64,000 nt of DNA from an uncultured Nitratireductor sp. (GTDB lineage Bacteria; Pseudomonadota; Alphaproteobacteria; Rhizobiales; Rhizobiaceae). The notes under the pieces were generated by a model. That model ran no database searches. It was not told the DNA's origin and worked only from the letters and a program-made list of their open reading frames with translations. The stretch's first letter is position 1, and every line of letters begins with the position of its first letter. Made by a program: the position numbers and the translations under genes. The stretch lies in assembly GCF_913053745.1 (NCBI RefSeq), contig NZ_CAJXGF010000004.1, positions 1,157 through 65,156 of the forward strand, given 5' to 3'. Positions 15,486 to 29,536 of the stretch are shown one piece after another.

Positions 15486-15935
15486 ATGACGACGACCGAA
15501 TTCTGGAAAACCAAGACGCTGGCCGAACTGAGCGATCGGGAGTGGGAGGCACTGTGCGATGGCTGCGGCAAATGCTGCCTCGCCAAGCTCGAGGATGAGG
15601 AGACCGGCGAGATCTATTGGACGAGCGTTGGCTGTCGTCTGTTCGATGGCGGGACCTGCCGGTGCAACGATTATGAGAACCGGCTCACGCGCGTGCCCGA
15701 TTGCGTTCGCCTGACGCCGGAGAATGTGGGGGACATCCCCTGGCTGCCGAGCACTTGCGGTTATCGGCTCATGGCGGAAGGAAAGGACTTGGCCTGGTGG
15801 CATCCGCTCGTTTCCGGCGATCCCAACACCGTGCACGAGGCCGGCATTTCCATGCGCGGCCGCGTGAAGGCAAGCGAAGACGAGCTGACGCAAGCGGAAG
15901 ACTATTTCTCTTTTATCCTGGATGAGGAACCATAG
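15486..15935 (+). CDS. YcgN family cysteine-cluster protein (UPF0260)
   Basis: [59 protein letters not shown]. Confidence 0.88.
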
Positions 15936-16936: not shown

Positions 16937-17665
16937 TTACTTGTCGAGCTCGAAGGTCACATTGACCTGCACCTGATAGGTGTTCTCGCCGGCTTCGACC
17001 GGAACGGCTTCAGCGGAGGCCTGCATCCGCACCGCCTTGCCGGCATAGGGCATGGGCGGACGCTGTTGCGCCTGCTCGGAAATCTCGATGATATCGCCGA
17101 GTTTGACGCCAGCGGCCTCCGCCAGTGTTCTGGCCTTGTCCATGGCGTTCTGGACGGCACGTTTGCGTGCCTCGGAGACAGTGGTCGAGGGGTCGTCATT
17201 GGTGAAGCTAAGGCCGCCGCCCTGATTGACGCCCAGCGTGACGGAGCGATCGAGAACCGCGCCGACCTTGTCGAGATCGCGGATGCGCACGGTCAGCGTG
17301 TTGCCGACCTCGTAACCGACGATGCGCGGTGACTCTTCCTCGTTCTTGTCGTTCGGATAGACGTAGCGCGGATTGATCGACAAGCCGCCGGTCTGCAGGT
17401 CGCGCGATTCGATCCCGTCTTCTTTCATGGCGTCGATGACCGAGGTCATTGCGTCATTGTTGGCGTCGAGTGCGGCGCGCGCGGTTTCGGCTTCACGTAC
17501 GACGGCGATTGTAAGGATCGCCATATCCGGGCTGATCGCGGCTTCTCCCTCGCCGGTCACGATGATTCGCGCGCGGTCGTCATCGGCATGAGCCGGCGCT
17601 GCGGCGAGAAGCGAAGCGGCAAGCATGGGGGCTGCAAAAGCGGCAGGAAAGATGGATTTGGTCAT
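16937..17665 (-). CDS. SIMPL-domain periplasmic protein (BP26/Omp28-like)
   Basis: Signal peptide MTKSIFPAAFAAPMLAASLLAAAPAHA. IIVTGEGEAAISPDMAILTIAV...VQVNVTFELDK matches the SIMPL/DUF541 layout. Confidence 0.88.
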   Translation of the reverse strand: MTKSIFPAAFAAPMLAASLLAAAPAHADDDRARIIVTGEGEAAISPDMAILTIAVVREAETARAALDANNDAMTSVIDAMKEDGIESRDLQTGGLSINPRYVYPNDKNEEESPRIVGYEVGNTLTVRIRDLDKVGAVLDRSVTLGVNQGGGLSFTNDDPSTTVSEARKRAVQNAMDKARTLAEAAGVKLGDIIEISEQAQQRPPMPYAGKAVRMQASAEAVPVEAGENTYQVQVNVTFELDK

Positions 17666-17775
17666 GGAAATCTCCTTTTGCGATGTCCGGATACGGCAAC
17701 TAGCGAGCGATTGTGTATCGATTGCGGCAAGGTGACTTGTGCAGCGATGAAAAAGCAACTACTCCATCGCCCACC

Positions 17776-17852
17776 GGGCCTGTAGCTCAATTGGTTAGAG
17801 CCGGCGGCTCATAACCGCTTGGTTGGGGGTTCGAGTCCCTCCGGGCCCACCA
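17776..17852 (+). tRNA. tRNA with CAU anticodon (elongator Met, or lysidine-modified Ile2)
   Basis: Folds as a cloverleaf: acceptor GGGCCTG/CGGGCCC, D arm GCTC/GAGC, anticodon arm GGCGG-CTCATAA-CCGCT, T arm GGGGG-TTCGAGT-CCCTC, encoded CCA. The anticodon arm resembles E. coli ileX (from memory), so Ile2 is possible. Confidence 0.93.
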
Positions 17853-18076: not shown

Positions 18077-18104
18077 AAAACCCCGCCGGCGGTTACCGGC
18101 GGGG
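18077..18104 (-). terminator. Rho-independent terminator after the large secreted-protein gene
   Basis: Minus strand CCCCGCCGG-TAACCG-CCGGCGGGG followed by TTTT. Confidence 0.6.
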
Positions 18105-18127: not shown

Positions 18128-21100
18128 TTACTGAAGCTGATTGCTCCTGTCGCGCGGCCGCAGGATTTGCGGATTGATGCGCAACGGGCGATCGAGCTGC
18201 TGTCGGGGCACCCGGTTGGTCGGCGGCGCCACGCGGATCTGCCGACAGTTGGGGTACTTGCCCGTCGTGCCGGGCGGACAACGGCGCTGCACAATCGGGC
18301 GGCAGTTCGGATACCTACCCGTTGTGCCCTGCGGGCAGCGGCGCTGTACGACCGGGCGGCAATTCGGGAACGTGCCCGTTGTGCCCCGCGGACAACGCGG
18401 CCGTACGATGGGTGCGCAATTGGGATAGCGCCCCGTCGTTCCCGGCGGGCATTGACGCTGCACCTCCGGCTTGCGGCAGGCCCCGGCCACCAGACGGGTT
18501 CCGCGCGGGCAGACACAGCGTCCGTCCTGGGTGCGGATCATGCCCGGAAGCAGACGGCACTGCTGGCGGATCGGCCGGCAGTTGGGCGGCGTGCCCGTCG
18601 TGCCGCGCGGGCACTCGCGCTCGATCTGCGGCTTGACGCAGCGGCCGTTCTGGAGCCGTGTTCCACGCGGGCAAACACAGCGTCCGTCGCGCGTGCGGAT
18701 CTGACCCGGCAGAAGCCGGCACTGCGGCCGGGGATCTGCCTGCGGCTTCGGATCGGGCTCGCGCGGCGGCGTTGGCCGGGGCGTGGGCAGCGGAACCGGA
18801 GCGGTTTGCGTGCCGACGCACTGGCCGTTGCGGAAGGTGGTGCCTTCCGGACAGACACAGCGCCCGTCATTGTTGAGAACAAGACCCGGCGAACATTGCT
18901 GGTCCTCATCCTCATCCGCCAGAACCGTGAAGTCATGGCAGTCATAGGCGCGGCCGTCTCCGGTCCCATCCGGCGCACCGGAGAGGGAGGGCGCGGTGCG
19001 CACATCCGCTCCACGGTCGATCACCGCAGCGCAGTTGCGTCCCGATGCACCATTGCCCACCGCGTTGGCGAGGCCGCCATCTTCCGGCAGCTCGACAACG
19101 ACCTCATGCGTGCGGCTTTCGCCACTGGCAAGGGTGAGGTCGGCTTCGCAGGCGAAGGGAAGCTCGGTCGGTTCGGGCGAACAGCCGAAGGGCGGGTTCA
19201 CCGAAACGATCCGGGCCGGAACGCCGCCGAAACCTTCTACCCGAAGCGCATCGCCGATGCGAACCGGACCGGAGATCGATGACGGACCTTCATTGCGGAT
19301 GGTGATCTGGAACGTGCAGGGCTGACCAAGCAGGCACTCCGCATCGCCGGTCTTTTCGACCGTGATCCGGGTGCCGCCCTGAGCACAGGCCTCGCCGATG
19401 GGATAGACGATGTCGTCCCCCGGAGCCGGGCCGAAGGAACCGCGTGCGCAGTTCTCGAACCGCTCATTGGGTGACACATTGACCGTCACATCGAAGTGCC
19501 GCGCGGTTCCGGGTGTCATGACGGCGCCGGGGATCTCGCAGGTGAGATTGGCCGCAGGCACCGCGCCGCAGGACCATTCCGGACCGTCAGGCGTGACAGT
19601 CTGGATGTCGACCGGCGCACCGCTGCCGATGATTTCGGCCGCGTCGTTGACGCGAACCGGTCCGACGGGTGCTGCCGTTCCGGCATTGCTGACAGTGATC
19701 CGGCAGGCCACACCTTCGGCGAGCGACACGGTGGGCTCACAGGTCTTCTGGATGCGCATTTGCGGCTGGCCGCCCGGGATGCCCGGTATGGTCGCCGTCG
19801 CACAGGCCTCGTTGTTGGCGAGATTGGTTTCGCCTTCAAGCGCGGTCACTTTCGCACAGTTCTCGACCTCGTTTGTCGGATAATCGCCGACGATTGTGGT
19901 CACGAGAATGTCCGTCGATGCGCCTGGCACGAGATTCAGGCCCGGATGGTCGCACTGGAACGTGTTGCCGGCGAGCGGCGCGCACGACCAGGGCGGCGAG
20001 GGGCTGAACGATGCCGAGGCGACATCACCGGCCGGGAACGTGTCCACGAAGCTGACAGGACCGTTGATCGGCGCCGCACCCGCATTGATGATTGTCACGA
20101 CATAGGTGCAGAGACCGTCTGGCGTACAGACCGTGGGTTCGGCCCGCTTGCGCACGGCGATGTCCGGAATGTCGTTCTCCGGCGGCGTGCAGGCCGGATC
20201 GCCCGGCAGGCAGATCGCGATGGTGGCGCAGGCCTTGTCGTTGGTCGGATCGCCGAACGGATCCTTGCCGCTGGCCGTGTAGTCATATGCGGCGCAATTG
20301 CGGATCGCGCTCCAGCTCCATGCCGGTCCCGGCTGGAAGCCGAGCTTCAGCTCCACGAATTCGCCCGGGTTGAGCGTGGTTTCGGGGTGTTCGCACGACA
20401 TGGGGCTCATCATCGGCACGCAGGTCCACGGCGCATTTGGCCCCGAGACCACCGCTGCGTTTCCGGGCGTCGTCACCTCATCCAACACGATCTTGCTGGT
20501 GTAAGGCGCATCGCCCGCATTGGAGACGCGAATGGTGAAATCGCACGAACCGTCGATCTCGCATTCGGCCTCATCGGCGCGCTTCTCGACCTTGATGTCG
20601 GGCTCGCCCTCGTCGTCGGGCGGGCATTCGAGGTCTTCGGGGATTTCAATGTCGACCACCTGCGAGCAACACAGGCCGACGCCTTCAGCGGGACCCGCAT
20701 AGGTCTCGATGCTGGTGACGATCAGATGCACCGTATCGCCGGGCAGTGCGCCGGTGATTTCCCATTCGAGCGTGCCGCCGCCGGCGGGAACGGCCTGGCT
20801 CGGCGGATCGATGGTGATGCCGGGCGTGGTGGATGTCACGGTGACGACATTGCCTGCCATCTCCGGGCCGACATCCATGCGATAGATATAGGCACCGCCA
20901 CCGGGAAGGCAGTCCACTTCACCGGTCTCGACCGAGAAACAGGCCTCTTCCGGCCCGTCGCCGGGCGGCGGGGGAGGCGGTGGCGGATCGCAATCCGTTA
21001 CATCGATGATGATAGCGGTGGGATCGCCGGTCTTCCAGTCGCCATCGTCCGGCAGGGCCGGGTCATGGGACGGAATGGTGGCGACGAGCCCGCCGGTTGC

Positions 21101-21799
21101 GGTGCGGATCACGGCCACATTGGCCTGATTGTCGACATTGGTGGCGGCAGGGAAGGCCGCCTGGTCGATCTTTGCCTTGATGGTGATATCGATGGCGCGC
21201 TCGGTCAGGCTGCCGTCGCCGTCGAGATCGGCGGCGGACAGGTGAAAATCCGACTGGGTGAGCGTGTCGTCCAGGGTACCGGTCGTGCTGACCACATGGG
21301 GTGGAACGGCTCCGCCGCCAGCACCGATGATATCGCCGCTGAACGTGGCGTCGACAATCGCCAGATTGGCGGGAAGCTGATCGGTAAACTCGAAGGTTAC
21401 ATTGGTGAGGAATGCGTCGAGGCCTGGGTGCGCGATCATGTCGGGCGTGCCGCGCACGCCGAGGCGCAGGCGATATTCCACATAATCGCAGTTGAGCTGC
21501 GTTCCGCGCTTTTCGAGGAAAGGCGTCAGGTCGGGCTCGGTTTCCGGCTCCAACGGTTCAAGCTCGATGCGTGGGCCTTCGGCGTCGCCCGGCGTTTCGA
21601 GAACCTCAAGCTCCTCGATCGTCCGGTCCTGTGCTCTGGCCTGATTGATGCCGGAAAGCGGTATGAACGCGGTGGAGAGCGCCATGCCCGCCACCAGCAG
21701 CCAGCGCGGCGAGCGCGCTTTTTCTGCAAGGGGTTTCATGATCGTCTCCATGACATTGTTGACCGTCAGCCGGTCGGCGGGAATTGTGAACATGTTCAT
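18128..21799 (-). CDS. Large secreted multidomain protein: four DUF11-like Cys-bracketed modules plus a Cys-rich tandem-repeat tail
   Basis: GGAGG lies 5 nt before the ATG at 21799. An alternative ATG at 21739 (GGAG Shine-Dalgarno) sits directly before signal peptide MKPLAEKARSPRWLLVAGMALSTAFIPLSGINQARA-Q. Contains a poly-Pro stretch, four ~90-aa repeats of the form (I/V)xK..C..C.(I/V).(I/V).N.G...W.C...C, then CPxGTTGxxPNC repeats. Confidence 0.85.
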   Translation of the reverse strand: MNMFTIPADRLTVNNVMETIMKPLAEKARSPRWLLVAGMALSTAFIPLSGINQARAQDRTIEELEVLETPGDAEGPRIELEPLEPETEPDLTPFLEKRGTQLNCDYVEYRLRLGVRGTPDMIAHPGLDAFLTNVTFEFTDQLPANLAIVDATFSGDIIGAGGGAVPPHVVSTTGTLDDTLTQSDFHLSAADLDGDGSLTERAIDITIKAKIDQAAFPAATNVDNQANVAVIRTATGGLVATIPSHDPALPDDGDWKTGDPTAIIIDVTDCDPPPPPPPPGDGPEEACFSVETGEVDCLPGGGAYIYRMDVGPEMAGNVVTVTSTTPGITIDPPSQAVPAGGGTLEWEITGALPGDTVHLIVTSIETYAGPAEGVGLCCSQVVDIEIPEDLECPPDDEGEPDIKVEKRADEAECEIDGSCDFTIRVSNAGDAPYTSKIVLDEVTTPGNAAVVSGPNAPWTCVPMMSPMSCEHPETTLNPGEFVELKLGFQPGPAWSWSAIRNCAAYDYTASGKDPFGDPTNDKACATIAICLPGDPACTPPENDIPDIAVRKRAEPTVCTPDGLCTYVVTIINAGAAPINGPVSFVDTFPAGDVASASFSPSPPWSCAPLAGNTFQCDHPGLNLVPGASTDILVTTIVGDYPTNEVENCAKVTALEGETNLANNEACATATIPGIPGGQPQMRIQKTCEPTVSLAEGVACRITVSNAGTAAPVGPVRVNDAAEIIGSGAPVDIQTVTPDGPEWSCGAVPAANLTCEIPGAVMTPGTARHFDVTVNVSPNERFENCARGSFGPAPGDDIVYPIGEACAQGGTRITVEKTGDAECLLGQPCTFQITIRNEGPSSISGPVRIGDALRVEGFGGVPARIVSVNPPFGCSPEPTELPFACEADLTLASGESRTHEVVVELPEDGGLANAVGNGASGRNCAAVIDRGADVRTAPSLSGAPDGTGDGRAYDCHDFTVLADEDEDQQCSPGLVLNNDGRCVCPEGTTFRNGQCVGTQTAPVPLPTPRPTPPREPDPKPQADPRPQCRLLPGQIRTRDGRCVCPRGTRLQNGRCVKPQIERECPRGTTGTPPNCRPIRQQCRLLPGMIRTQDGRCVCPRGTRLVAGACRKPEVQRQCPPGTTGRYPNCAPIVRPRCPRGTTGTFPNCRPVVQRRCPQGTTGRYPNCRPIVQRRCPPGTTGKYPNCRQIRVAPPTNRVPRQQLDRPLRINPQILRPRDRSNQLQ
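18245..18721 (-). repeat. Nested in-frame coding tandem repeats (57-bp unit within a ~162-bp unit)
   Basis: Four consecutive CPxGTTGxxPNC(R/A)P(I/V)V.RR units (19 aa) at 18245-18451. Two larger units, CRLLPG.IRT.DGRCVCPRGTRL..G.C.KP....(E/Q) plus CPxGTTG..PNC, span 18395-18721. By eye, DNA copies 18497-18561 and 18658-18722 match at most positions. Confidence 0.85.
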
Positions 21800-21810
21800 C
21801 TCTCCCTCCC

Positions 21811-23802
21811 TCACGGCGCACAGGATTCAAGCGGCGTTTCAAGCGGCAACGTCACCTTGCAACAGGGGAAGTAGCCACCCGCCTCGGCATCGGACTTTCT
21901 GTAGAAGCACAGGCCGAGATCGACGGTTTCGCCGGGAATGTGGCCATTGATGCCGAGTGTGAACGGCGTGGCCAGACCGGGGACCGTCTGCTTGGACGGG
22001 GAAACGCCGACGCCGGGCGTCAGCGATTTCGCGGAAAGCGAATCGCCACCGATGCCGGCGCGGTCATGGATGTAGAGATCGGCTTCAAGCCCTGCGGGCG
22101 TACAGAAATACGCCGCCGTCTCCAGCTCGATACAGGGCGGGATATCGTTGGGCGGCGGGAAGCCGGGCGGCCAGCCGGGGACGGGAATGTCACCCGGATA
22201 GGGGATAGGCTCGTAGTAGCCGGCGCGGCCCTCGCAGGGACGCCAGACCTCCACGTCGCCGACATGCCCCTTGACCTCGGGGTCTTCGAAGAAGCCGTCG
22301 TAATCGGCAAACCACGAGCCGAAGGGCGGTTCGTTTTTTGGCCGCACGAGCGTGCTTCTCGTAAGCTGCACACCATGAACGGCGAGCGGCCCGCCCTCGA
22401 TGAGCTGCTCTTCAAGGGCAGGGTTGTCGCGCAGCCTGTCGCCGGTTTTCACCAGCGTGGCCGCGCAGGCATTGCGGTTGAAGAAGCCTTCGGCGTCATA
22501 ACCATATTGCAGGTCGATGCCGCCGGCTCCCTGTCGGTATGGTTCGGGAAAACCGACCGCATATTCCTGCGGTGCCGGCACCCAGACGCTTTCGGTTTCG
22601 GGATCGTCGGGGCTTTCGCGCCAGTAGCGCAGCACCGATGCCTCTCCGCTGTCGGCAAAGCTCGAATAGTCGTAGCGGTTTTCAACTTCGCCGCGCTGGG
22701 CGAGATACATGAAACCGCGCGTGTCGAAAGCAATGTCGGTGACGGGGAGGTCTTCCTCCGCCTCCACCGTCAGCTCCCAGCGCGGGTCGCCGGCGAACGT
22801 GCCGTCGCGAGCGATGCCCACGGACCAGATTTCCGCTTCCTCGCCAACGGCGTAGTAGAGGCGTCCACCGTGCATGGAGAGGCCATGAACGCGGCGCTCT
22901 TCCTGCGTGTAGCCCCAGCTTTTCGGCTCTTCCGCGTCGAAGGCAGCGCCCTGAATGTCCATCACGGCGCCATCGTCGGCCACGGGATCGAGCCCGCGTG
23001 CCGCCCTTCCGTCCACGCCATGATCGAACGTGTCGATGAGATTGCCGTCGATGTCGATGCGGTGAATGAGGCCGCTGTCGAGATCGGAAGCGAAGAACTG
23101 GCGATGCGACCGGTCGAAGGCGATGTTGCCGATGCCGGGGCCGCTGTTCGTGTCGATATTGGCAAACAGGGTCACGGCGCCGGTGATGCCGTCAATCTTC
23201 CAGATCGAACCGGGACCGCCGCCATTCTTCTCGCCGAACTGCCCGTCCATGAAGCGCGCGCCGGCTTCGCCGCGGCGCTGCCGTTCGGGCCGCCCGTCCT
23301 CGTCGGCGTCTTCCGTGACGATCTGGAGGCCGTGCAGGGACGTGGCGGCGGCGTAAAGGTTCGGCACGATGGCCGTTGTCTCTTCACGCTTGCCGTCATC
23401 GTATGCAAGGCCGAACACCTGGCCGATTTCGGCGGCCGGCACTTCGAAGGGCGGCGGCGTAAAAACCACCTGTCCGCTGGGCGGGGCGCCGAGCCAGGTC
23501 ATGTCGAAGATGCGCAGCGAAGCGCGCTCGGTGTCGATGAAGGTTTCGTCCACCGGGTCGACGCCGGGGAGCAGTCCCTCCTCGAAGCCGGGAATATGTG
23601 TGCCCGGGAAACCGGTCACGGCCATGAAGCCCGGTTGGATGATTGCGTTTTCCTGCGCGCTTGCCGGCGCGTTCGATGAAATTCCCGCCATCACGGCGAG
23701 CGCTATGGCCGCGGTGCTTTCAAGAAAATGTCTGGCGATTGTGCCAGAGTGACGTGGTGCGTTTCTGCCGCACCGTGTCGGGAACTGCCGGTTTTGCCCC
23801 AT
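21811..23802 (-). CDS. Secreted hypothetical protein (663 aa) sharing a C-terminal Cys-containing domain with the downstream large protein
   Basis: ATG at 23802 lies 6 nt after GGGAGG. Signal peptide ...STAAIALAVMAGISSNAPASA-QE. Its stop overlaps the downstream ORF. I recognise no named family. Confidence 0.8.
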   Translation of the reverse strand: MGQNRQFPTRCGRNAPRHSGTIARHFLESTAAIALAVMAGISSNAPASAQENAIIQPGFMAVTGFPGTHIPGFEEGLLPGVDPVDETFIDTERASLRIFDMTWLGAPPSGQVVFTPPPFEVPAAEIGQVFGLAYDDGKREETTAIVPNLYAAATSLHGLQIVTEDADEDGRPERQRRGEAGARFMDGQFGEKNGGGPGSIWKIDGITGAVTLFANIDTNSGPGIGNIAFDRSHRQFFASDLDSGLIHRIDIDGNLIDTFDHGVDGRAARGLDPVADDGAVMDIQGAAFDAEEPKSWGYTQEERRVHGLSMHGGRLYYAVGEEAEIWSVGIARDGTFAGDPRWELTVEAEEDLPVTDIAFDTRGFMYLAQRGEVENRYDYSSFADSGEASVLRYWRESPDDPETESVWVPAPQEYAVGFPEPYRQGAGGIDLQYGYDAEGFFNRNACAATLVKTGDRLRDNPALEEQLIEGGPLAVHGVQLTRSTLVRPKNEPPFGSWFADYDGFFEDPEVKGHVGDVEVWRPCEGRAGYYEPIPYPGDIPVPGWPPGFPPPNDIPPCIELETAAYFCTPAGLEADLYIHDRAGIGGDSLSAKSLTPGVGVSPSKQTVPGLATPFTLGINGHIPGETVDLGLCFYRKSDAEAGGYFPCCKVTLPLETPLESCAP

Positions 23803-24268
23803 GCCTTGCCTCCCGAAACCGTTTCGGAAGGCTGCCGGATGGGCGTCATTTTCGCGCCCGGTCCCTGTTGTTCCGGTGTATCCCCCCGAAGCGAGGTTCT
23901 TTTCAACCCCGTCGCCGTTGAACCTACGCCTCGGCTTACCCAAGGTCAACAAAACCGCCCCGGCCATAAGCCGTGGCGGCTCCAGCGACCGTTTGCATTC
24001 GATATGCCGTGTCATCACAACACTCCTTTCCGGGTGCGCACCATGCGTACCCTGCAGGGTTTGTCGGACGAGGCTGTGAAAAGGTTCACACTGGAAACCG
24101 GCCGAATGCCGGTAGACGAAGGCAAATCCGTCCCTCGGGCGCATTCCCGGGATCTGTATTCTGAGACCTGTTCCCACGGGTCGGCAAATGGACTAGCTTT
24201 CGAAGGATTGGGGGAAAAGCGATGAACCGGAACGTCCCGTCGCGCGACACAGTCTCGAAGGGCCGGTT

Positions 24269-24841
24269 ATGAGCGGTGCTGCGGACCAGATGTCCGACGC
24301 AGAACTTGTGGCCAGAACGGCGCGCGGCGAACGGACTGCGCTGAGGCTCTTGTTCATGCGGCATCACACGCGCGTCTACCGCTTCGTGGTGCGCCAGACG
24401 GGATCGGAGACCATGGCGGAAGAAATCGCGAATGAAGTGTTTCTGGAGGTGTGGCGCCAGGCGCCACGCTTCGAGGCACGCTCGCAGGTTTCCACCTGGC
24501 TTCTCGGCATTGCGCGGTTCAAGGCGCTTTCGGCGTTGCGCAAACGCAAAGAGAAGGCTCTGGAAGAGGGGCAGGCCGAGGCCGTCGCCGACAGCGCGGA
24601 TACGCCGGAAGTCTCGGCGATGAAGGAGGACAAGGCGACGGCGCTGCGCGGTTTCGTCAACCATTTGTCGGAAGAGCACCGCACGGTGGTCGACCTTGCC
24701 TATTACCATGGCAAGTCGGTGACCGAGATTGGCGAGATCCTTTCCGTGCCCATCGCCACCGTGAAAACCAGGATGTTTTACGCACGCAAGAAGCTTGGAG
24801 AAGCCTTGCAGGCGGCAGGATACGATCGAGGCTGGCCATGA
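24269..24841 (+). CDS. ECF-type RNA polymerase sigma factor
   Basis: Region 2 (LLFMRHHTRVYRFVVRQTGSETMAEEIANEVFLEVWRQA..FEARSQVSTWLLGIARFKAL) and region 4 (VVDLAYYHGKSVTEIGEILSVPIATVKTRMFYARKKL). Confidence 0.92.
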   Translation: MSGAADQMSDAELVARTARGERTALRLLFMRHHTRVYRFVVRQTGSETMAEEIANEVFLEVWRQAPRFEARSQVSTWLLGIARFKALSALRKRKEKALEEGQAEAVADSADTPEVSAMKEDKATALRGFVNHLSEEHRTVVDLAYYHGKSVTEIGEILSVPIATVKTRMFYARKKLGEALQAAGYDRGWP

Positions 24842-25494
24842 GCGAGAACCCACAATCGAACCGCCGCGACCGGCTGGAGGCGCTGTTGCCGTTCTTTCTG
24901 AATGGCACACTCTCCGGGGCGGAACTGCGCGAAGTGGAGGAATGGCTCGCCTCTGATCCACAGGCAATGGCCTCGCTGGCCGAAGCCGAAGGCGAGTATT
25001 CCGCAACCCTTGCCGACAATGAGGCGATCCGCCCGACGGACGATGCATTGGCGCGCTTTTCAGAAGCGTTGGCTGAAGAGGCTGGGCCGGAAAAGATGGC
25101 AAAGCCCGCATTTAGGGAGCGGCTTGCCCGCATTCTGCCCGCGTTTCCGGTTCAGGCTGCCTGGGTGGCTGCGGGTCTGGCGCTCGCCATTTTGGTGGGG
25201 CAGACCGTGTGGCTCGGTCTATCGCAGACGGAGCAATACTCCGTCGCCGGCGCGGAGGATGATGATGCACCCTTCGCCTTCGTGACCTTTACAGCGGAAG
25301 CCTCGATGGCCGATGTCTCGGCGTTGCTGGACGAAAGCGAAGTCGAGATTGCTGCCGGGCCGCTGCCGGACGGACTCTACCGGGTGCTTATCCCGGCCGA
25401 AACGGCCGCACAATACGATGAGATCGTTGCCGGGCTGGAGCGGGCCGGTGTGGTGGAAACCGTTGTGACGGGGCGTAAACCTGGTGATGAATAG
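24838..25494 (+). CDS. Anti-sigma factor (single-pass membrane protein, no zinc-binding Cys motif)
   Basis: ATGA overlap with the sigma gene. N-terminal anti-sigma-like helix bundle (LEALLPFFLNGTLSGAELREVEEWLASDPQ), one TM helix (AAWVAAGLALAILVGQTVWLGL), and a ~90-aa periplasmic tail. Confidence 0.75.
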   Translation: MSENPQSNRRDRLEALLPFFLNGTLSGAELREVEEWLASDPQAMASLAEAEGEYSATLADNEAIRPTDDALARFSEALAEEAGPEKMAKPAFRERLARILPAFPVQAAWVAAGLALAILVGQTVWLGLSQTEQYSVAGAEDDDAPFAFVTFTAEASMADVSALLDESEVEIAAGPLPDGLYRVLIPAETAAQYDEIVAGLERAGVVETVVTGRKPGDE

Positions 25495-26908
25495 GGCTTT
25501 CACGCGTATATTGAGCGGTGTCGTGCTTGCCGTTTTTCTGGAGGGCCCCGTGTTCGCCCAAACCGCGTCGCCAAACGGATCGGCGCGGACGCTCGTGGCG
25601 AACGGAGTGCGTGAGGATGCGGCAGCGGGCGAGCGCCATGTGATCTATCTGCCCGAAATGCTGGCCGAGCTATTCGGGCCCGGAATTGGCAGCGACGCCT
25701 CCGCGCGCTCTTCTGCGCCCCCGGCTGCCGATGCCGCTGCGACAAACGGGGATCCGGCAAATCCGAACAGCGACGGAGCGGCCGCGTCGGTATCCGTATC
25801 TGCCAGCGCAGGGTCGTTTGCGCGGCCGGTTGAGCCGCAGCGGGCCATTTCGGGCGCCATCGTGCCGGACGAAGTGCTGGTCACCCTGGCTGGTGACGAG
25901 GGGGTGGTCAACGCGGTCGCCGCGCAATTCGGACTGGAGGTGCGTTCCGCCCGCGCTTCGACACTTCTTGGCCGCACCGTTGCACGCCTTGGCATCCCCG
26001 ATGGGCGTCCTGTGGGGTTCGTGCTCGCTCAGCTTGCCGGCGACGGTCGGCTGGCCGATCGTGTGCCAAATCATCTGTTCGAACTACAGCAGGCGGCGGG
26101 CGTGGTGAATTACGCCTTCGAACGCATCGCACTCGATGCCGGTGTCGTGAGTGGAGAGAATGTAAGCGTCGCGGTGATCGACACCAGCTTCGACGAGGAG
26201 CATCCCGCTCTCAAGGGACGCATCGCAGGCACGTTCGATGCGCTCCCGAATATGGCTGTGAACGACCGTGATCATGGCACGTCCATTTCCGGCCTAATCG
26301 CTGGCGATGGACCGTTTCGGGGAATCGCGCCGGGCGTTCGCCTGCTCCATGCACGGGCTTTCGAGAGCGGTGTGTCGAGCACCGACGTCCTTCTTGCCGC
26401 CCTCGATTGGGCAGTGGAAGAGGGCGCGCAGATCGTGAATATGAGCTTTGTCGGGCCGGAGAACCCGCTCTTTTCCGCAGCCTGTCGCAATGCGGTTGCG
26501 CGCGGCGTGGTGCTTGTTGCGGCAGCCGGGAACAACGGGCCGAATGCGCCGTTCGGTTATCCTGCCGCCTATGAGAGTGTCATCGCCGTGACGGCGACCG
26601 ACGTTCGCGACAAGCTTATGGGCAAGGCCAATCGCGGCCGCTACATCGATCTATCGGCGCCGGGCGTAAACGTGGTTGCGCCCATTTCCGGCGGCATCGA
26701 TGTTGTGACGGGCACCTCTTTTGCGGCCGCCGTCGTTTCCGGTGCGATTGCCAATCTCATGCATGCCGGTGAGGACGCAACGCCGGAAGCGCTGGCCGAA
26801 CTGCTGCGGACCACCGCCGTGGATCTCGGTGTGCCGGGCCGGGATGAGGATTTCGGAGATGGGTTGCTGAATGCCAAGGCGGCCATGGAGGCACGTGTCG
26901 AAGATTAG
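25487..26908 (+). CDS. S8 family serine peptidase (subtilase) with signal peptide and N-terminal pro-region
   Basis: Signal peptide MNRAFTRILSGVVLAVFLEGPVFA-Q. Catalytic triad contexts VAVIDTSFD, DHGTSISGLIAG, GTSFAAAVVSG. Overlaps the anti-sigma stop by 8 nt (GTG at 25484 is an alternative start). Confidence 0.9.
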   Translation: MNRAFTRILSGVVLAVFLEGPVFAQTASPNGSARTLVANGVREDAAAGERHVIYLPEMLAELFGPGIGSDASARSSAPPAADAAATNGDPANPNSDGAAASVSVSASAGSFARPVEPQRAISGAIVPDEVLVTLAGDEGVVNAVAAQFGLEVRSARASTLLGRTVARLGIPDGRPVGFVLAQLAGDGRLADRVPNHLFELQQAAGVVNYAFERIALDAGVVSGENVSVAVIDTSFDEEHPALKGRIAGTFDALPNMAVNDRDHGTSISGLIAGDGPFRGIAPGVRLLHARAFESGVSSTDVLLAALDWAVEEGAQIVNMSFVGPENPLFSAACRNAVARGVVLVAAAGNNGPNAPFGYPAAYESVIAVTATDVRDKLMGKANRGRYIDLSAPGVNVVAPISGGIDVVTGTSFAAAVVSGAIANLMHAGEDATPEALAELLRTTAVDLGVPGRDEDFGDGLLNAKAAMEARVED

Positions 26909-26919
26909 GTTTTCTCGTT

Positions 26920-27690
26920 TTATCGGGCGAGATCGACGGGCGCGATGATTGGGCCCTTCTTGTCGCGTGTGCGATGGGCCGCCACCCCGTAGATCTCCGC
27001 CAGATACCGGTCCGAAAGCACCGTTTCCGGCGCGCCGAACGCTGCAAGTTTTCCTTGGTTCAAGAGCAAGACCCGATCACACCAGCGGGCGGCGAGCGTC
27101 AGGTCGTGCAGTGAGACCAGTGTTGTGCGCCCTTCGGCTGCAAGCCGGTTCAGCGATTGCATAAGTGTGATCTGGTGCGCCGGGTCGAGGCCGGAGGCCG
27201 GTTCGTCGGCGATGAGGAGAGGGGTTGCCTGCGCAACGGCGCGTGCCATCAGCACACGCGCCTGTTCGCCGCCGGAAAGCTCGGTGGCAATCCGGTGGGC
27301 GAGCGGAGTGACATCGGTCATCTCCATTGCGCGGGCGATGGCGCTTTCGTCTTCGTCGCCGGCGCGGCGACCGAAGGCACGCCATGGCAAGCGGCCCAGC
27401 GCCACGAGATCGCGCACGGTGAGACGCCAGCCGATGATGCGCTGCTGCGGCAGATAGGCGATAAGGCGGGCTCGTTCGGCCGGGCCGACAGAGGCGAGAT
27501 CGTGCTCGCCGAGCCGCATGGTGCCGTGAGCGGCCAGATGCCCGGTGAGCGCGCGCATCAGCGTGGACTTGCCCGCGCCGTTCGGGCCGAGCAGGCCGAT
27601 CACGTGACCGGCCTCTATATCGAAACCGATGCCATCGATCACGCGTCTGCCGCCGAGCGTTACGCCGAGATTGTCGACCTGGAGCCTCAT
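26920..27690 (-). CDS. ABC transporter ATP-binding protein (FecE/BtuD type)
   Basis: Walker A GPNGAGKST, signature LSGGEQ, Walker B LLIADEP. Its start shares 1 nt with the permease stop. The 604-aa track ORF is a read-through extension. Confidence 0.9.
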   Translation of the reverse strand: MRLQVDNLGVTLGGRRVIDGIGFDIEAGHVIGLLGPNGAGKSTLMRALTGHLAAHGTMRLGEHDLASVGPAERARLIAYLPQQRIIGWRLTVRDLVALGRLPWRAFGRRAGDEDESAIARAMEMTDVTPLAHRIATELSGGEQARVLMARAVAQATPLLIADEPASGLDPAHQITLMQSLNRLAAEGRTTLVSLHDLTLAARWCDRVLLLNQGKLAAFGAPETVLSDRYLAEIYGVAAHRTRDKKGPIIAPVDLAR

Positions 27691-28670
27691 CACAACATCT
27701 CCCGGCGGGCGCGCATGACAAGCCACAAGAAGAAGGGTGCGCCGATCAATGCCGTCAGAACCCCGACATTCAATTCGCCGGCCGGAAGAACCACGCGCGC
27801 GGCGATGTCGGCAGCCAGAAGCAGCGCCGCGCCGCCAAGACCCGCCGGCAGCAAAAGGCTGCTCGGCATGCGGTTGGTGAGCGGACGGACCAGGTGCGGC
27901 ACCACCAGTCCGATAAAGCCGATGGTGCCGGAAACGGCGGTTGCTGCGCCCACCGAAAGTGCGACGCCGGCGACGATCAAAACGCGTGCGCGGCCCATAT
28001 GAATGCCGAGATTGGCGGCGGCTTCCTCGCCGAGCGACAGCGCATCGATGGCGCGGGCCGAAACGGCAATAAGCAACCATCCCGCGACCATGAGGGGCAG
28101 GGCGAGCATCACATGCTCGATGGAGCGGTCCTTTAGGGAGCCGAGCAACCAAAAGACGATTTCGTAAGCGGCAAAAGGGTTGGGAGAGAGGTTGAGGACC
28201 AGAGAGGTTAGCGCGCCGGCAAGGCTCGACAGGGCAATGCCGGCAAGGATGAGCGTCAGCGTGGAGCCTTGCCGCGACGCGATTGCAAGCAGGATGAGCA
28301 CGGCCAAAAATGCGCCGATCAGCGCACCGGCGGGCAGGGCATAGAGCGAGCTTCCGGCAAGTCCGGAGTAAAACATGACAACGGCGCCGAGGGCGGCCAT
28401 GGATGACACGCCGATCACGCCGGGTTCGGCGAGCGGGTTGCGCAGAAATCCCTGCAGCACCGCGCCGGAGAGACCGAGCGAAACGCCGATTGCGAGACCG
28501 AGAACGGCGCGCGGCAGGCGAATTTCGCGCATGATGATGGAGGCCGCTTCGCCACCGCCGGCGAGAAGTCCGGCAATGCTGTTTCCGATCCCAAGCTCGG
28601 CCGGCCCGACCAGCAGCGACAGGACGAAGAGCGCAAGGGTGAGAAGTGTAAGCGAGACGGAAAGCTTCAT
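27690..28670 (-). CDS. FecCD-family ABC permease (BtuC-like)
   Basis: MKLSVSLTLLTLALF...REIRLPRAVLGLAIGVSLGLSGAVLQG...GTIGFIGLVVPH, typical FecCD motifs. Confidence 0.9.
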   Translation of the reverse strand: MKLSVSLTLLTLALFVLSLLVGPAELGIGNSIAGLLAGGGEAASIIMREIRLPRAVLGLAIGVSLGLSGAVLQGFLRNPLAEPGVIGVSSMAALGAVVMFYSGLAGSSLYALPAGALIGAFLAVLILLAIASRQGSTLTLILAGIALSSLAGALTSLVLNLSPNPFAAYEIVFWLLGSLKDRSIEHVMLALPLMVAGWLLIAVSARAIDALSLGEEAAANLGIHMGRARVLIVAGVALSVGAATAVSGTIGFIGLVVPHLVRPLTNRMPSSLLLPAGLGGAALLLAADIAARVVLPAGELNVGVLTALIGAPFFLWLVMRARREML

Positions 28671-29536
28671 TGCGTGGCGTCCTGCGGGCAGGGCGCGATT
28701 TCGGCGCGCAGGCTTGCCAGTGCGCGCACGGCATCGATCACTGCGGGCGAGCCGCACGACCATGCGCCGGCGGGCACGAATGGGCCGATGTGCGTATCCG
28801 GCAGGGCGGCAATCGCGGGATGGCGCGGCACATATTCGCCAAGGGTGGGGGCACCCTCCGAGGCGCTGGTGACGATGACGTCGGGTCGGGCGGCGACGAC
28901 CTGTTCGAGCGGAAACGGAGCCATGCCGTTGACACCGAGGTCGGCGGCCAGATTGTCAAAGCCGGCGGCTTGCATGACGGAATCGGCGAGCGTGCCGTTC
29001 CCGGAAGCGATGCCGTTCTGGTCATAGGCGATGATCGTGGGGCGGATGCCGCATTGCCGCGAGGCGATCTGATCGAGCTCTTGCGAGAAATCGTCGGCCA
29101 GCTTTTCGGCCTTTTCTTCCTGGCCGAGAAGCGCGCCCATGCGGCGTATCTCATCGGGTATGGTGTCGAGCGTCTGCACGAAGGAAAACTCTTCGACCCT
29201 AAAGCCGAGCCGCTTCAGCAGCGCAGTCGTGTTGTGCAGCGAATAGGTGCCGGTGACGACCAGATCCGGCTTTTCCAGAAACACTTCTTCGGCAAGCCCG
29301 CGATTGACCGGATACGCCTGCGCTTTTTCGTGCAGCGTGGAAAGGGTGGGTTCGCGGGCCAGAAACGAGACGGAAACGAGCTGCTCCGGCTGTGCAAGCG
29401 ACATGGCGAGTTGATCGGTGCACAGATTGAGGGACATGACCCGCTTGGGCGCGGCCGACACCGGCGCGGCAAAAAGCGCGCCAGCCAGAAATATCAGGCC
29501 GGAAAGGCGAAGCGAACGTTTCCGGCCCCCGGACAT
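28667..29536 (-). CDS. ABC transporter periplasmic substrate-binding protein (BtuF/heme-type cluster)
   Basis: Signal peptide. KRVMSLNLCTDQLAMSL...PDLVVT...PDVIVTS are class III substrate-binding-protein features. ATGA overlap with the permease. Confidence 0.85.
   Translation of the reverse strand: MSGGRKRSLRLSGLIFLAGALFAAPVSAAPKRVMSLNLCTDQLAMSLAQPEQLVSVSFLAREPTLSTLHEKAQAYPVNRGLAEEVFLEKPDLVVTGTYSLHNTTALLKRLGFRVEEFSFVQTLDTIPDEIRRMGALLGQEEKAEKLADDFSQELDQIASRQCGIRPTIIAYDQNGIASGNGTLADSVMQAAGFDNLAADLGVNGMAPFPLEQVVAARPDVIVTSASEGAPTLGEYVPRHPAIAALPDTHIGPFVPAGAWSCGSPAVIDAVRALASLRAEIAPCPQDATQ

Follow-up and report, generated by a model that had tools for sequence, protein, structure and literature searches.

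Two sigma factors of the extracytoplasmic function (ECF) type turned up in our literature search in connection with a subtilase or other protease gene. The first is ECF54 of Actinobacteria, the conserved context of which contains a subtilase, a carboxypeptidase and CHAT proteins, and which has no anti-sigma factor, degradation of the sigma factor itself being the role proposed for the protease (PMC8999054). The second is RpoE6 (ECF26) of S. meliloti, which forms a rhizobial ECF/anti-sigma pair, has as its strongest targets neighbouring genes including a serine protease, and whose targets were identified from a common promoter motif (PMC6180224). Among surface proteins, DUF7929 and CLIPPER are described as CnaA-like intramolecular isopeptide domains of the stalks of fibrillar adhesins (PMC12617251). 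Here, we analyse computationally a five-gene locus in a 64-kb stretch of DNA, called the window hereafter, from an uncultured Nitratireductor sp. (contig NZ_CAJXGF010000004.1), where the genes of an ECF sigma factor, an anti-sigma factor and a secreted S8 subtilase (called S8) are divergent from those of two secreted proteins, which we call P2 and BIG. The original prediction, made from the sequence alone, was that the sigma factor has a dedicated divergent target operon and that a subtilase within the sigma/anti-sigma transcription unit is not a standard ECF architecture. As shown below, the former holds through a promoter motif that is common to both promoters rather than through the layout. 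As to the latter, a subtilase in the gene context of an ECF sigma has a precedent in ECF54 (PMC8999054), while no proteobacterial sigma/anti-sigma/S8 operon was found described in the literature and the main text of the ECF re-classification paper (Casas-Pastor 2021) gives no subtilase-associated proteobacterial group.

The predicted regulatory link rests on a directional ECF-type motif, TGAACC-N16-CGAC, which was found by aligning the regions upstream of sigma. Exactly two copies are present in the window, with 0.15 expected, and both lie inside the divergent intergenic region, one facing sigma and the other facing P2; the second conserved block in the alignment of the sigma upstream regions is the same −35 element on the opposite strand, directed at P2. 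In 1.64 Mb of related loci the strict motif has 86 matches versus 3.7 expected; of these, 68 precede P2 by a constant distance and 11 lie upstream of sigma. On the sigma side the motif is located 11-34 nt before the start codon and is present in strict form in 11 of the 14 sigma-bearing loci, or in 13 when a spacing of 15-17 nt is allowed. The information profile shows that TGAACCTTTCC and GCGAC(T/A)GA are conserved while the spacer between them is variable, which implies that selection acts on the two boxes and not on the whole region. Moreover, within single genomes the sequence, the spacing and the flanking bases (TGAACCTTTCC...GCGAC(T/A)GA) are identical at both promoters, and in a distant relative, the metagenome-assembled genome (MAG) locus L083, both promoters read GGGAACG-N16-CGAC, i.e., the −35 element is altered alike at the two sites. 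In lineages that lack this sigma, the P2-like genes are not preceded by the motif. A simple scan, which is weak evidence, gave no sigma-70-type promoter in the intergenic region, and nothing was found in the literature on this motif or on the PRK12515 sigma subfamily. Based on these data, we have fair confidence in the predicted regulation, in which the sigma factor autoregulates its own operon and drives P2-BIG.

It is noted that the two operons are in most relatives not neighbours. With one genome per species scanned with the P2 alignment and with flanks of ±10 kb, 79 loci were obtained and scored with the five window proteins, 7 of them having a flank too short for the linkage to be judged. 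The divergent sigma/anti-sigma/S8 module stands next to P2-BIG in 12 of the 72 informative loci, whereas in the other 60 it is missing from the upstream sequence at hand, which covers at least 5 kb, and 10 kb for most. Thus, the statement that the five genes form one compact unit is true for some lineages only, and synteny in relatives, which had been set beforehand as a refuting test, is lacking in most of them. The regulatory link is nevertheless well supported, because the promoter motif persists in the genomes where the operons are unlinked: in the two genomes that have both units on one contig, the motif is retained at both promoters though the operons are ~160 kb and ~110 kb apart. Each operon by itself is stable, with the P2 then BIG pair retained in almost all relatives, the sigma/anti-sigma pair in every sigma-bearing locus, and the sigma/anti-sigma/S8 trio intact in all 12 loci with a contig long enough.

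The linked loci belong to Nitratireductor, Allomesorhizobium, Phyllobacterium-like MAGs, two Mesorhizobium-like MAGs, a Rhizobiaceae MAG and L083, the proteins of which have 52% (P2), 57% (sigma) and 42% (S8) identity to those of the window. Most genomes of Mesorhizobium and Aminobacter have the operons in separate places with the motif retained, and in Mesorhizobium the trio, with its overlapping junctions, stands amid sugar-transport genes. Because the early-branching lineages of the P2 tree are those with linked loci, and the unlinked ones fall in two or three derived clades, the linked divergent layout is probably ancestral and was later broken by a few rearrangements. In Allomesorhizobium camelthorni (L011, 7486-10001) sigma and P2 are divergent neighbours with ~2.5 kb between them, in which there are GC-rich palindrome-like repeats (CCCCTC...GGGGGAGG), an arrangement that could be an intermediate toward unlinking.

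Five Mesorhizobium/Allomesorhizobium loci have an extra copy of the motif ahead of the gene downstream of BIG. In Mesorhizobium this third gene is present in L002 (15823-17843) and also in L053, L054, L066 and L067, codes for a secreted protein of 654 aa that has Cys-rich repeats at its C-terminus and matches nothing in Pfam, and has its own motif copy, TGAACCTTAC-N12-GCGACAAAC, in 4 of the 5 loci (by the search pattern, not in L066). In L011 a motif copy follows BIG at 15793, and the gene downstream of it has no match at E <= 1e-20. The 654-aa Cys-rich protein is probably a third regulon member in some Mesorhizobium. It was considered as a P2 paralog and rejected as such, being unrelated to P2, and it has no counterpart in the window.

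We now consider the proteins of the regulatory operon. The sigma protein consists of the sigma-2 and sigma-4 regions only (Pfam Sigma70_r2, 9.4e-16; Sigma70_r4_2, 3.5e-11; Sigma70_ECF, 6.4e-07) and scores 278.8 bits against NCBIfam NF009168 (PRK12515; cutoff 236), with the next best model at 121.8 bits and the closest solved relatives at ~66 bits. From its sequence it is an ECF sigma factor by every feature tested, namely the domains, the co-encoded anti-sigma factor and the predicted AAC-type −35 and CG-type −10 elements. The anti-sigma protein has no Pfam match and matches an NCBIfam anti-sigma model weakly (6.2e-08, below the cutoff). In its AlphaFold2 (AF2) model, with an overall predicted local distance difference test (pLDDT) score of 79.6, N-terminal helices are formed by residues 5-22, 27-39, 41-63 and 70-82 (pLDDT 83-92) and a transmembrane (TM) helix by residues 105-128, so that the modelled protein has the layout of a class I anti-sigma domain (ASD), a four-helix N-terminal domain and then one TM helix. 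The zinc-binding anti-sigma (ZAS) motif HxxxCxxC is not present in it, its N-terminal domain having neither Cys nor His. Its 102 homologs all fall in one group of genera. The periplasmic domain is directly followed, after the last strand, by a conserved GRKP tail at the C-terminus, with G212 and P215 invariant. When this domain is compared with the Protein Data Bank (PDB) by Foldseek, the top matches are subtilisin pro-domains: 3whi with a root-mean-square deviation (rmsd) of 2.6 Å, and 1scj_B, 2z56_B, 2z58_B and 1spb_P with target TM-scores of 0.66-0.67. With weak statistics, as discussed below, we take this modelled resemblance as a lead.

The S8 protein matches Peptidase_S8 of Pfam (E = 5.8e-44), its catalytic residues D232, H263, N318 and S411 being invariant in 116 homologs. 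Between the signal peptide and the catalytic domain, residues 121-215 show a conservation of 0.78-0.89 and an alternating strand/helix pattern, with no Pfam match even at E = 10. Among NCBIfam models, those of mycosin, QhpE and PatA/G come nearest, though none reaches its cutoff; as a mycosin of the type VII secretion system (T7SS; TIGR03921) it scores 148.6 bits, under the cutoff of 278.75. The overlap of 8-11 nt between the S8 and anti-sigma genes is retained across deep divergence, and the S8 family has a narrow distribution that matches that of the anti-sigma.

S8 genes of a different subfamily also occur in same-strand clusters without sigma in two outgroup MAGs (L082, 76-10960; L084, 1950-7635), in the order of an S8 with a C-terminal SH3 domain, two uncharacterised proteins (444/482 aa and 316/282 aa) and a P2-like gene; the L082 cluster ends with a BIG-like gene of 1,736 aa, and the L084 contig stops within the P2-like gene. 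L084 and L060, the latter carrying the orthologous five-gene cluster, are from a single MAG, so that one genome has two systems that are paralogous and do not share their S8 gene. At two further loci (L092, 6820-15812, and L093) a distant pair of a P2-like (697 aa) and a CLIPPER (1,568 aa) gene is divergent from two-component genes, a HisKA sensor kinase and a GerE-type response regulator, instead of an ECF module. In our reading, divergent modules dedicated to envelope signalling have been recruited by the cargo operon more than once, ECF here and a two-component system elsewhere; S8 proteases are associated with head-type cargo recurrently, not universally, and in the present lineage S8 is coupled in its stoichiometry to the anti-sigma. 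The model that we favour has S8 acting in the periplasm on the sensor domain of the anti-sigma, on the cargo, or on both.

The cargo is considered next. P2, which had been noted as of no recognised family, indeed has no Pfam or NCBIfam match and no description of its head family was found in the literature; it is not an orphan, because an exhaustive profile search found its head module in 1,898 cluster representatives (633 at E <= 1e-30), most of which carry it as the N-terminus of proteins of 1,000-2,500 aa. By modelling, the head looks, weakly, like a beta-propeller: Foldseek gives generic beta-propellers only, with low TM-score and poor superposition, and a PDB profile search only a weak DFPase match (E = 0.01). 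In three remote P2-like proteins (P0382, P0384 and P0420) a caspase-like Peptidase_C14 domain appears to stand N-terminal to the head, a placement taken from the domain being present in 3 of 30 scanned proteins and the head starting only at residue ~305-318 in these three; such a fusion would be another protease association of the head family.

BIG matches DUF7929, a domain not named in the original prediction, at its N-terminus (4.4e-79, 264.7 bits) and DUF11 in 2 stretches (1.2e-22, 80.8 bits), both above the Pfam gathering score. The four Cys-bracketed modules, the poly-Pro hinge and the Cys-rich repeat tail that had been described for it were borne out by inspection and by the DNA repeat: each module has, by eye, candidate K..D..N isopeptide residues, and the tail has 5 units of CPxGTTGxxPNC, encoded by a 57-nt (19-aa) tandem repeat at 18246-18460. 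The BIG-like lengths range from ~900 to ~1,740 aa between genomes, and thus the repeat number may vary. The private domain of ~101 aa, Cys-bracketed, that was said to be common to P2 and BIG is recovered by BLASTP (E = 8e-8, 30% identity over ~100 aa), with no Pfam match at E = 10. Among 36 large relatives the P2-like head is fused to DUF11/CLIPPER in 20, and others have one of the predicted isopeptide domains DUF7507, DUF5979 and DUF7927, a domain for peptidoglycan binding or a caspase domain at the N-terminus; the consensus downstream of the head in the large relatives reproduces the Cys-bracketed modules and the CPxGxxGxxP tail of BIG. Because relatives fuse the head to a stalk with BIG-like modules and tail, we infer that P2 and BIG are a split version of a head-plus-stalk protein.

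Combining these results, we propose the following explanation, an ECF-driven split fibrillar cargo with S8 tied both to the cargo and to the anti-sigma, which as a whole we judge, from sequence comparison, to be somewhat better than even. The motif TGAACC-N16-CGAC would be the promoter recognised by this ECF sigma, and with the motif at both operons the sigma would drive its own operon, by positive autoregulation, as well as P2-BIG. At rest the cytoplasmic four-helix domain of the anti-sigma would sequester sigma, and an envelope signal would relieve the sequestration via the periplasmic domain. The cargo would be a split fibrillar protein, with P2 giving the beta-propeller-like head and BIG the isopeptide-type stalk with the Cys-rich basic tail, and the one copy of the private domain in each would let the halves associate. 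In the least certain steps, S8 would be a periplasmic processing protease tied to the cargo, and the anti-sigma would monitor S8, or be cleaved by it, through the pro-domain-like sensor domain. Action of S8 on the anti-sigma, a tentative suggestion, is held to be only slightly more likely than action on the cargo alone, which is discussed below; what is left, a share of similar size, falls to action on both or on neither. In a specific version, which we regard as rather unlikely, the anti-sigma periplasmic domain is a mimic of a subtilase pro-domain, the GRKP tail docks S8, and S8, once activated by a signal from the envelope or from cargo assembly, degrades the domain and so releases sigma, in the role of a dedicated site-1 protease of S8 type. 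If this version is true, a protease/pro-domain pair has been co-opted as an ECF sensor, and the processing state of a split stalk protein is coupled to its own transcription.

A number of points weigh against the proposed explanation. For the sensor domain, the Foldseek E-values of the pro-domain matches are 0.013-0.06, none being <= 0.001, and the fold is common to S6, ACT and RRM domains too; hhalign of the sensor domain versus the S8 pro-like region gives E = 0.056 with the elements in register, BLASTP of the sensor domain versus the S8 pro-region gives no match, and Pfam at E = 10 gives none for either. For the head, the AF2 model of P2 is poor (pLDDT 43, from a shallow 13-sequence alignment). 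For the cargo, no recognised outer-membrane export, sorting or anchoring signal was found with Pfam/NCBIfam, which return DUF7929 and DUF11 only, and in some BIG-like relatives the C-terminal end is a domain for peptidoglycan binding, which would suit a periplasmic, wall-anchored cargo rather than a surface adhesin. The earlier proposal of an adhesin or matrix cargo fits the DUF7929/CLIPPER domains. Finally, the P2-like/CLIPPER pair of the L092 type has no S8 within 9 kb, and, for the regulatory part, another ECF sigma of similar specificity might serve the P2 promoter.

The rival explanation that survives best is that S8, as the original prediction had suggested as a possibility, matures or processes P2 and BIG, and that it does this solely and has no signalling part, being in the sigma operon for co-induction with its substrates, which we regard as possible but doubtful. 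It would account for the sigma-less clusters, where the S8-SH3 gene stands upstream of, and on the same strand as, the P2-like and BIG-like genes (one of these two outgroup genomes also holding the orthologous five-gene cluster), and for the closest NCBIfam models being those of processing proteases; the private domain present in both P2 and BIG could act as a common recognition handle. It accounts less well for three other observations. After the break-up of the ancestral cluster, S8 is found in translational coupling with the anti-sigma and not beside the cargo, though this is also expected if the breakpoints simply fall between operons; the L092-type head and CLIPPER pair has no S8 nearby; and the best structural matches of the anti-sigma sensor domain are subtilisin pro-domains.

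Less probable by a clear step is that S8 is a mere output of the regulon, a general periplasmic or secreted protease tied specifically neither to P2/BIG nor to the anti-sigma. Proteases are frequent members of ECF regulons, as with S. meliloti RpoE6, which induces the adjacent serine protease SMa0142 (PMC6180224), and the S8 catalytic domain is of ordinary subtilisin type, with ~100 bits to subtilisin BPN' and E. By contrast, an unspecific output would not be expected to keep its overlap of 8-11 nt with the anti-sigma down to 42% S8 identity (L083), to share the narrow distribution of the anti-sigma, or to have relatives that recur beside P2-like cargo elsewhere.

We give very little weight to the explanation that the adjacency is coincidental and that P2-BIG is read by a different sigma of similar motif. 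ECF −35/−10 motifs can resemble each other between groups, and the unlinking of the operons in most loci would fit such a reading; however, the identity of sequence, spacing and flanks at both promoters within single genomes, the parallel alteration in L083, the probably ancestral linkage and the confinement of the motif to lineages with this sigma argue together for the one sigma.

The reading of the locus as an island, mobile or genomic, inserted beside a tRNA gene is rejected. The tRNA-Met(CAT) is indeed 276 bp from the BIG end (~275 bp having been claimed) and the GC content is slightly higher over BIG (up to 0.69). However, the 3' end of the tRNA has no att-like repeat in the window, no integrase is present among the annotated genes of the homologous region, and P2 and BIG are inherited vertically as a pair, being 65-90% identical across Phyllobacteriaceae and placed in varied chromosomal contexts. 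The higher GC content falls on the repeat tail, which is rich in Pro, Arg, Cys and Gly, and the closeness of the tRNA is incidental.

The features of the locus are listed in the table below. The five open reading frames (ORFs), the ATGA overlap of sigma and anti-sigma (24838-24841) and the 8-nt overlap of anti-sigma and S8 (ATG at 25487, anti-sigma stop TAG at 25492-25494) were verified at the coordinates first reported, and the Pfam hidden Markov model searches then suggested matched Sigma70_r2/r4, Peptidase_S8 and DUF11. The overlap of the P2 stop with BIG holds for the maximal BIG ORF only: the most likely start of BIG is ATG 21799, which has a Shine-Dalgarno (SD) sequence GGGAGGGAG ahead of it and lies 11 nt past the P2 stop. 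The hairpin beyond BIG is the probable end of the minus-strand operon.

The start of P2 is ambiguous, and therefore the divergent intergenic region is 466 bp, as first given, if P2 starts at 23802, or 253 bp if it starts at 24015. The latter is an alternative in-frame ATG with SD GGAAAGGAG, 47 nt past the −10 element, and gives 734 aa; of 68 loci, 64 have an in-frame ATG with a GGAAAGGA SD at 44-49 nt from the −10 element on its downstream side, with the frame staying open. The ~95 codons before the conserved Met at 23802 have almost no amino-acid conservation and no third-position bias, the variability by codon position being ~0.15/0.11/0.18 in the leader versus 0.07/0.05/0.22 in mature P2. 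No Rfam family was found in the leader, the only Rfam match being the tRNA. The region 23803-24062 could thus be a long 5' leader, or a poorly constrained (disordered, Arg-rich) N-terminal extension before the signal peptide.

The locus is flanked by ordinary chromosomal genes, for a SIMPL/BP26-like periplasmic protein (16937-17758, minus strand) and for a FecCD-type ABC importer with ATPase, permease and binding protein (26920-29536, minus strand); the Nitratireductor chromosome CP029208 (L003) has the same flanking genes.

Table. Genes, protein domains, predicted promoters and neighbouring elements of the locus, in window coordinates (aa, amino acids).
Feature	Position	Strand	Remark
sigma ORF	24269..24841	+	ECF sigma factor, 190 aa
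anti-sigma ORF	24838..25494	+	single-pass anti-sigma factor, 218 aa
anti-sigma four-helix N-terminal domain	24850-25083	+	AF2 model
anti-sigma transmembrane helix	25150-25221	+	AF2 model
anti-sigma periplasmic beta-alpha-beta-beta-alpha-beta domain	25273-25470	+	residues 146-211, pLDDT ~90
S8 ORF	25487..26908	+	secreted S8 subtilase, 473 aa
S8 signal peptide, then variable linker	N-terminal part of 25487..26908	+	
S8 conserved pro-like region	25847-26131	+	
S8 catalytic domain	26153-26863	+	Asp-His-Ser triad in order, plus oxyanion Asn
predicted autoregulatory ECF promoter of sigma/anti-sigma/S8 operon	24223..24248	+	TGAACCGGAACGTCCCGTCGCGCGAC; 20 nt ahead of sigma ATG
predicted ECF promoter of P2-BIG operon	24063..24088	-	TGAACCTTTTCACAGCCTCGTCCGAC; -35 TGAACC, 16-nt spacer, -10 CGAC; kept in 68 loci
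leader or N-terminal extension of P2	23803..24062	-	
P2 ORF	21811..23802	-	663-aa form, from conserved Met
P2 signal peptide			ends ASA-Q
P2 beta-propeller-like head	~22168-23655	-	~520 aa
P2 C-terminal shared Cys-bracketed domain	21832-22134	-	
BIG ORF	18128..21799	-	1,223-aa secreted stalk protein
BIG signal peptide	N-terminus	-	
BIG DUF7929, CnaA-like predicted isopeptide domain	20996-21523	-	
BIG P8 (poly-Pro) hinge		-	inspection
BIG shared Cys-bracketed domain	20639-20941	-	
BIG four CLIPPER/DUF11-like modules	~18923-20605	-	inspection
BIG Cys-rich repeat tail	~18245-18895	-	
BIG basic C-terminus		-	
GC-rich hairpin	18081..18104	.	9 G-C pairs; terminator-like scan and sequence; 24 nt beyond BIG stop
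tRNA-Met(CAT)	17776-17852		neighbour, outside the system; 276 bp from BIG stop

Compared with the canonical ECF systems in which the anti-sigma factor is of class I and release depends on regulated proteolysis, i.e., sigmaE-RseA-DegS/RseP of E. coli, sigmaW-RsiW-PrsW of B. subtilis and the FecI/FecR-type systems with Prc of Pseudomonas, the system of the window is alike in the sigma/anti-sigma operon with its predicted autoregulation, in an anti-sigma that crosses the membrane once and has a helical domain for sigma binding at its N-terminus and a sensor domain outside the cytoplasm, and in the small dedicated regulon with an AAC-type −35 and a CG-type −10 element. It is unlike them in that the operon includes the S8 gene, in translational coupling with that of the anti-sigma, and in that the sensor is a small ferredoxin-like alpha/beta domain. 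In the sigmaE/RseA type, the extracytoplasmic domain is cut by a site-1 protease, after which the site-2 protease RseP cuts within the membrane. The site-1 proteases of the canonical systems are S1C (DegS), PrsW, S41 (Prc) or signal peptidase, whereas the candidate here, hinted at indirectly by the coupling within the operon and by the pro-domain-like fold of the sensor, is an S8 subtilase; if S8 acts on the anti-sigma, this would be a new protease class for ECF activation, with a pro-domain-like sensor besides. The modelled periplasmic domain of the anti-sigma has the same topology and size as I9-type subtilisin pro-domains (3whi, 1scj, 1spb, 2z56 and 2z58; rmsd 2.6-5.0 Å) and likewise ends in a C-terminal tail right after the last strand, the tail that in subtilisin pro-domains enters the active-site cleft. 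Unlike them, it is part of a separate membrane protein, and S8 has its own conserved pro-like region. In RsgI anti-sigmas, a conserved extracytoplasmic juxtamembrane domain serves as a proteolytic switch (PMC10328401), where RsgI cleaves itself while the candidate here is a separate co-encoded S8; the comparison was made through the PDB fold search only, which detected no relationship.

As to the two protease-linked ECF systems, the S. meliloti protease SMa0142 is divergent from the RpoE6 genes, whereas S8 is co-transcribed downstream of the anti-sigma, and the RpoE6 motif is of the GGAATA...CGTT type rather than TGAACC-N16-CGAC (PMC6180224), the two having been compared by layout and motif only. 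ECF54 is alike in the conserved subtilase near the sigma gene and in its proposed proteolytic regulatory role (PMC8999054); the system of the window differs from it in having a membrane anti-sigma, an alphaproteobacterial host (Phyllobacteriaceae) and an S8 with a signal peptide. It gives a computationally defined ECF regulon of two promoters, or of three in some Mesorhizobium, in a clade that includes important legume symbionts, and its regulation is modular, since the cargo can be split into two genes and paired with interchangeable dedicated regulators, an ECF module or a two-component system.

Finally, the cargo resembles the CLIPPER (DUF11)/DUF7929 fibrillar adhesins (PMC12617251) in having DUF7929 and tandem CLIPPER-like modules, a signal peptide and a separate head. 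Unlike in those adhesins, it is split in two genes, each with the private shared domain, every module is Cys-bracketed, and BIG ends in a Cys-rich CPxGTTGxxPNC tail with no known anchoring signal, the isopeptide bonds being predicted only. In this comparison, a widespread head module of ~520 aa, for which there is no Pfam model, caps CLIPPER-type isopeptide stalks in Gram-negative bacteria, and the locus provides a handle on the role of isopeptide-domain proteins in the alphaproteobacterial envelope.

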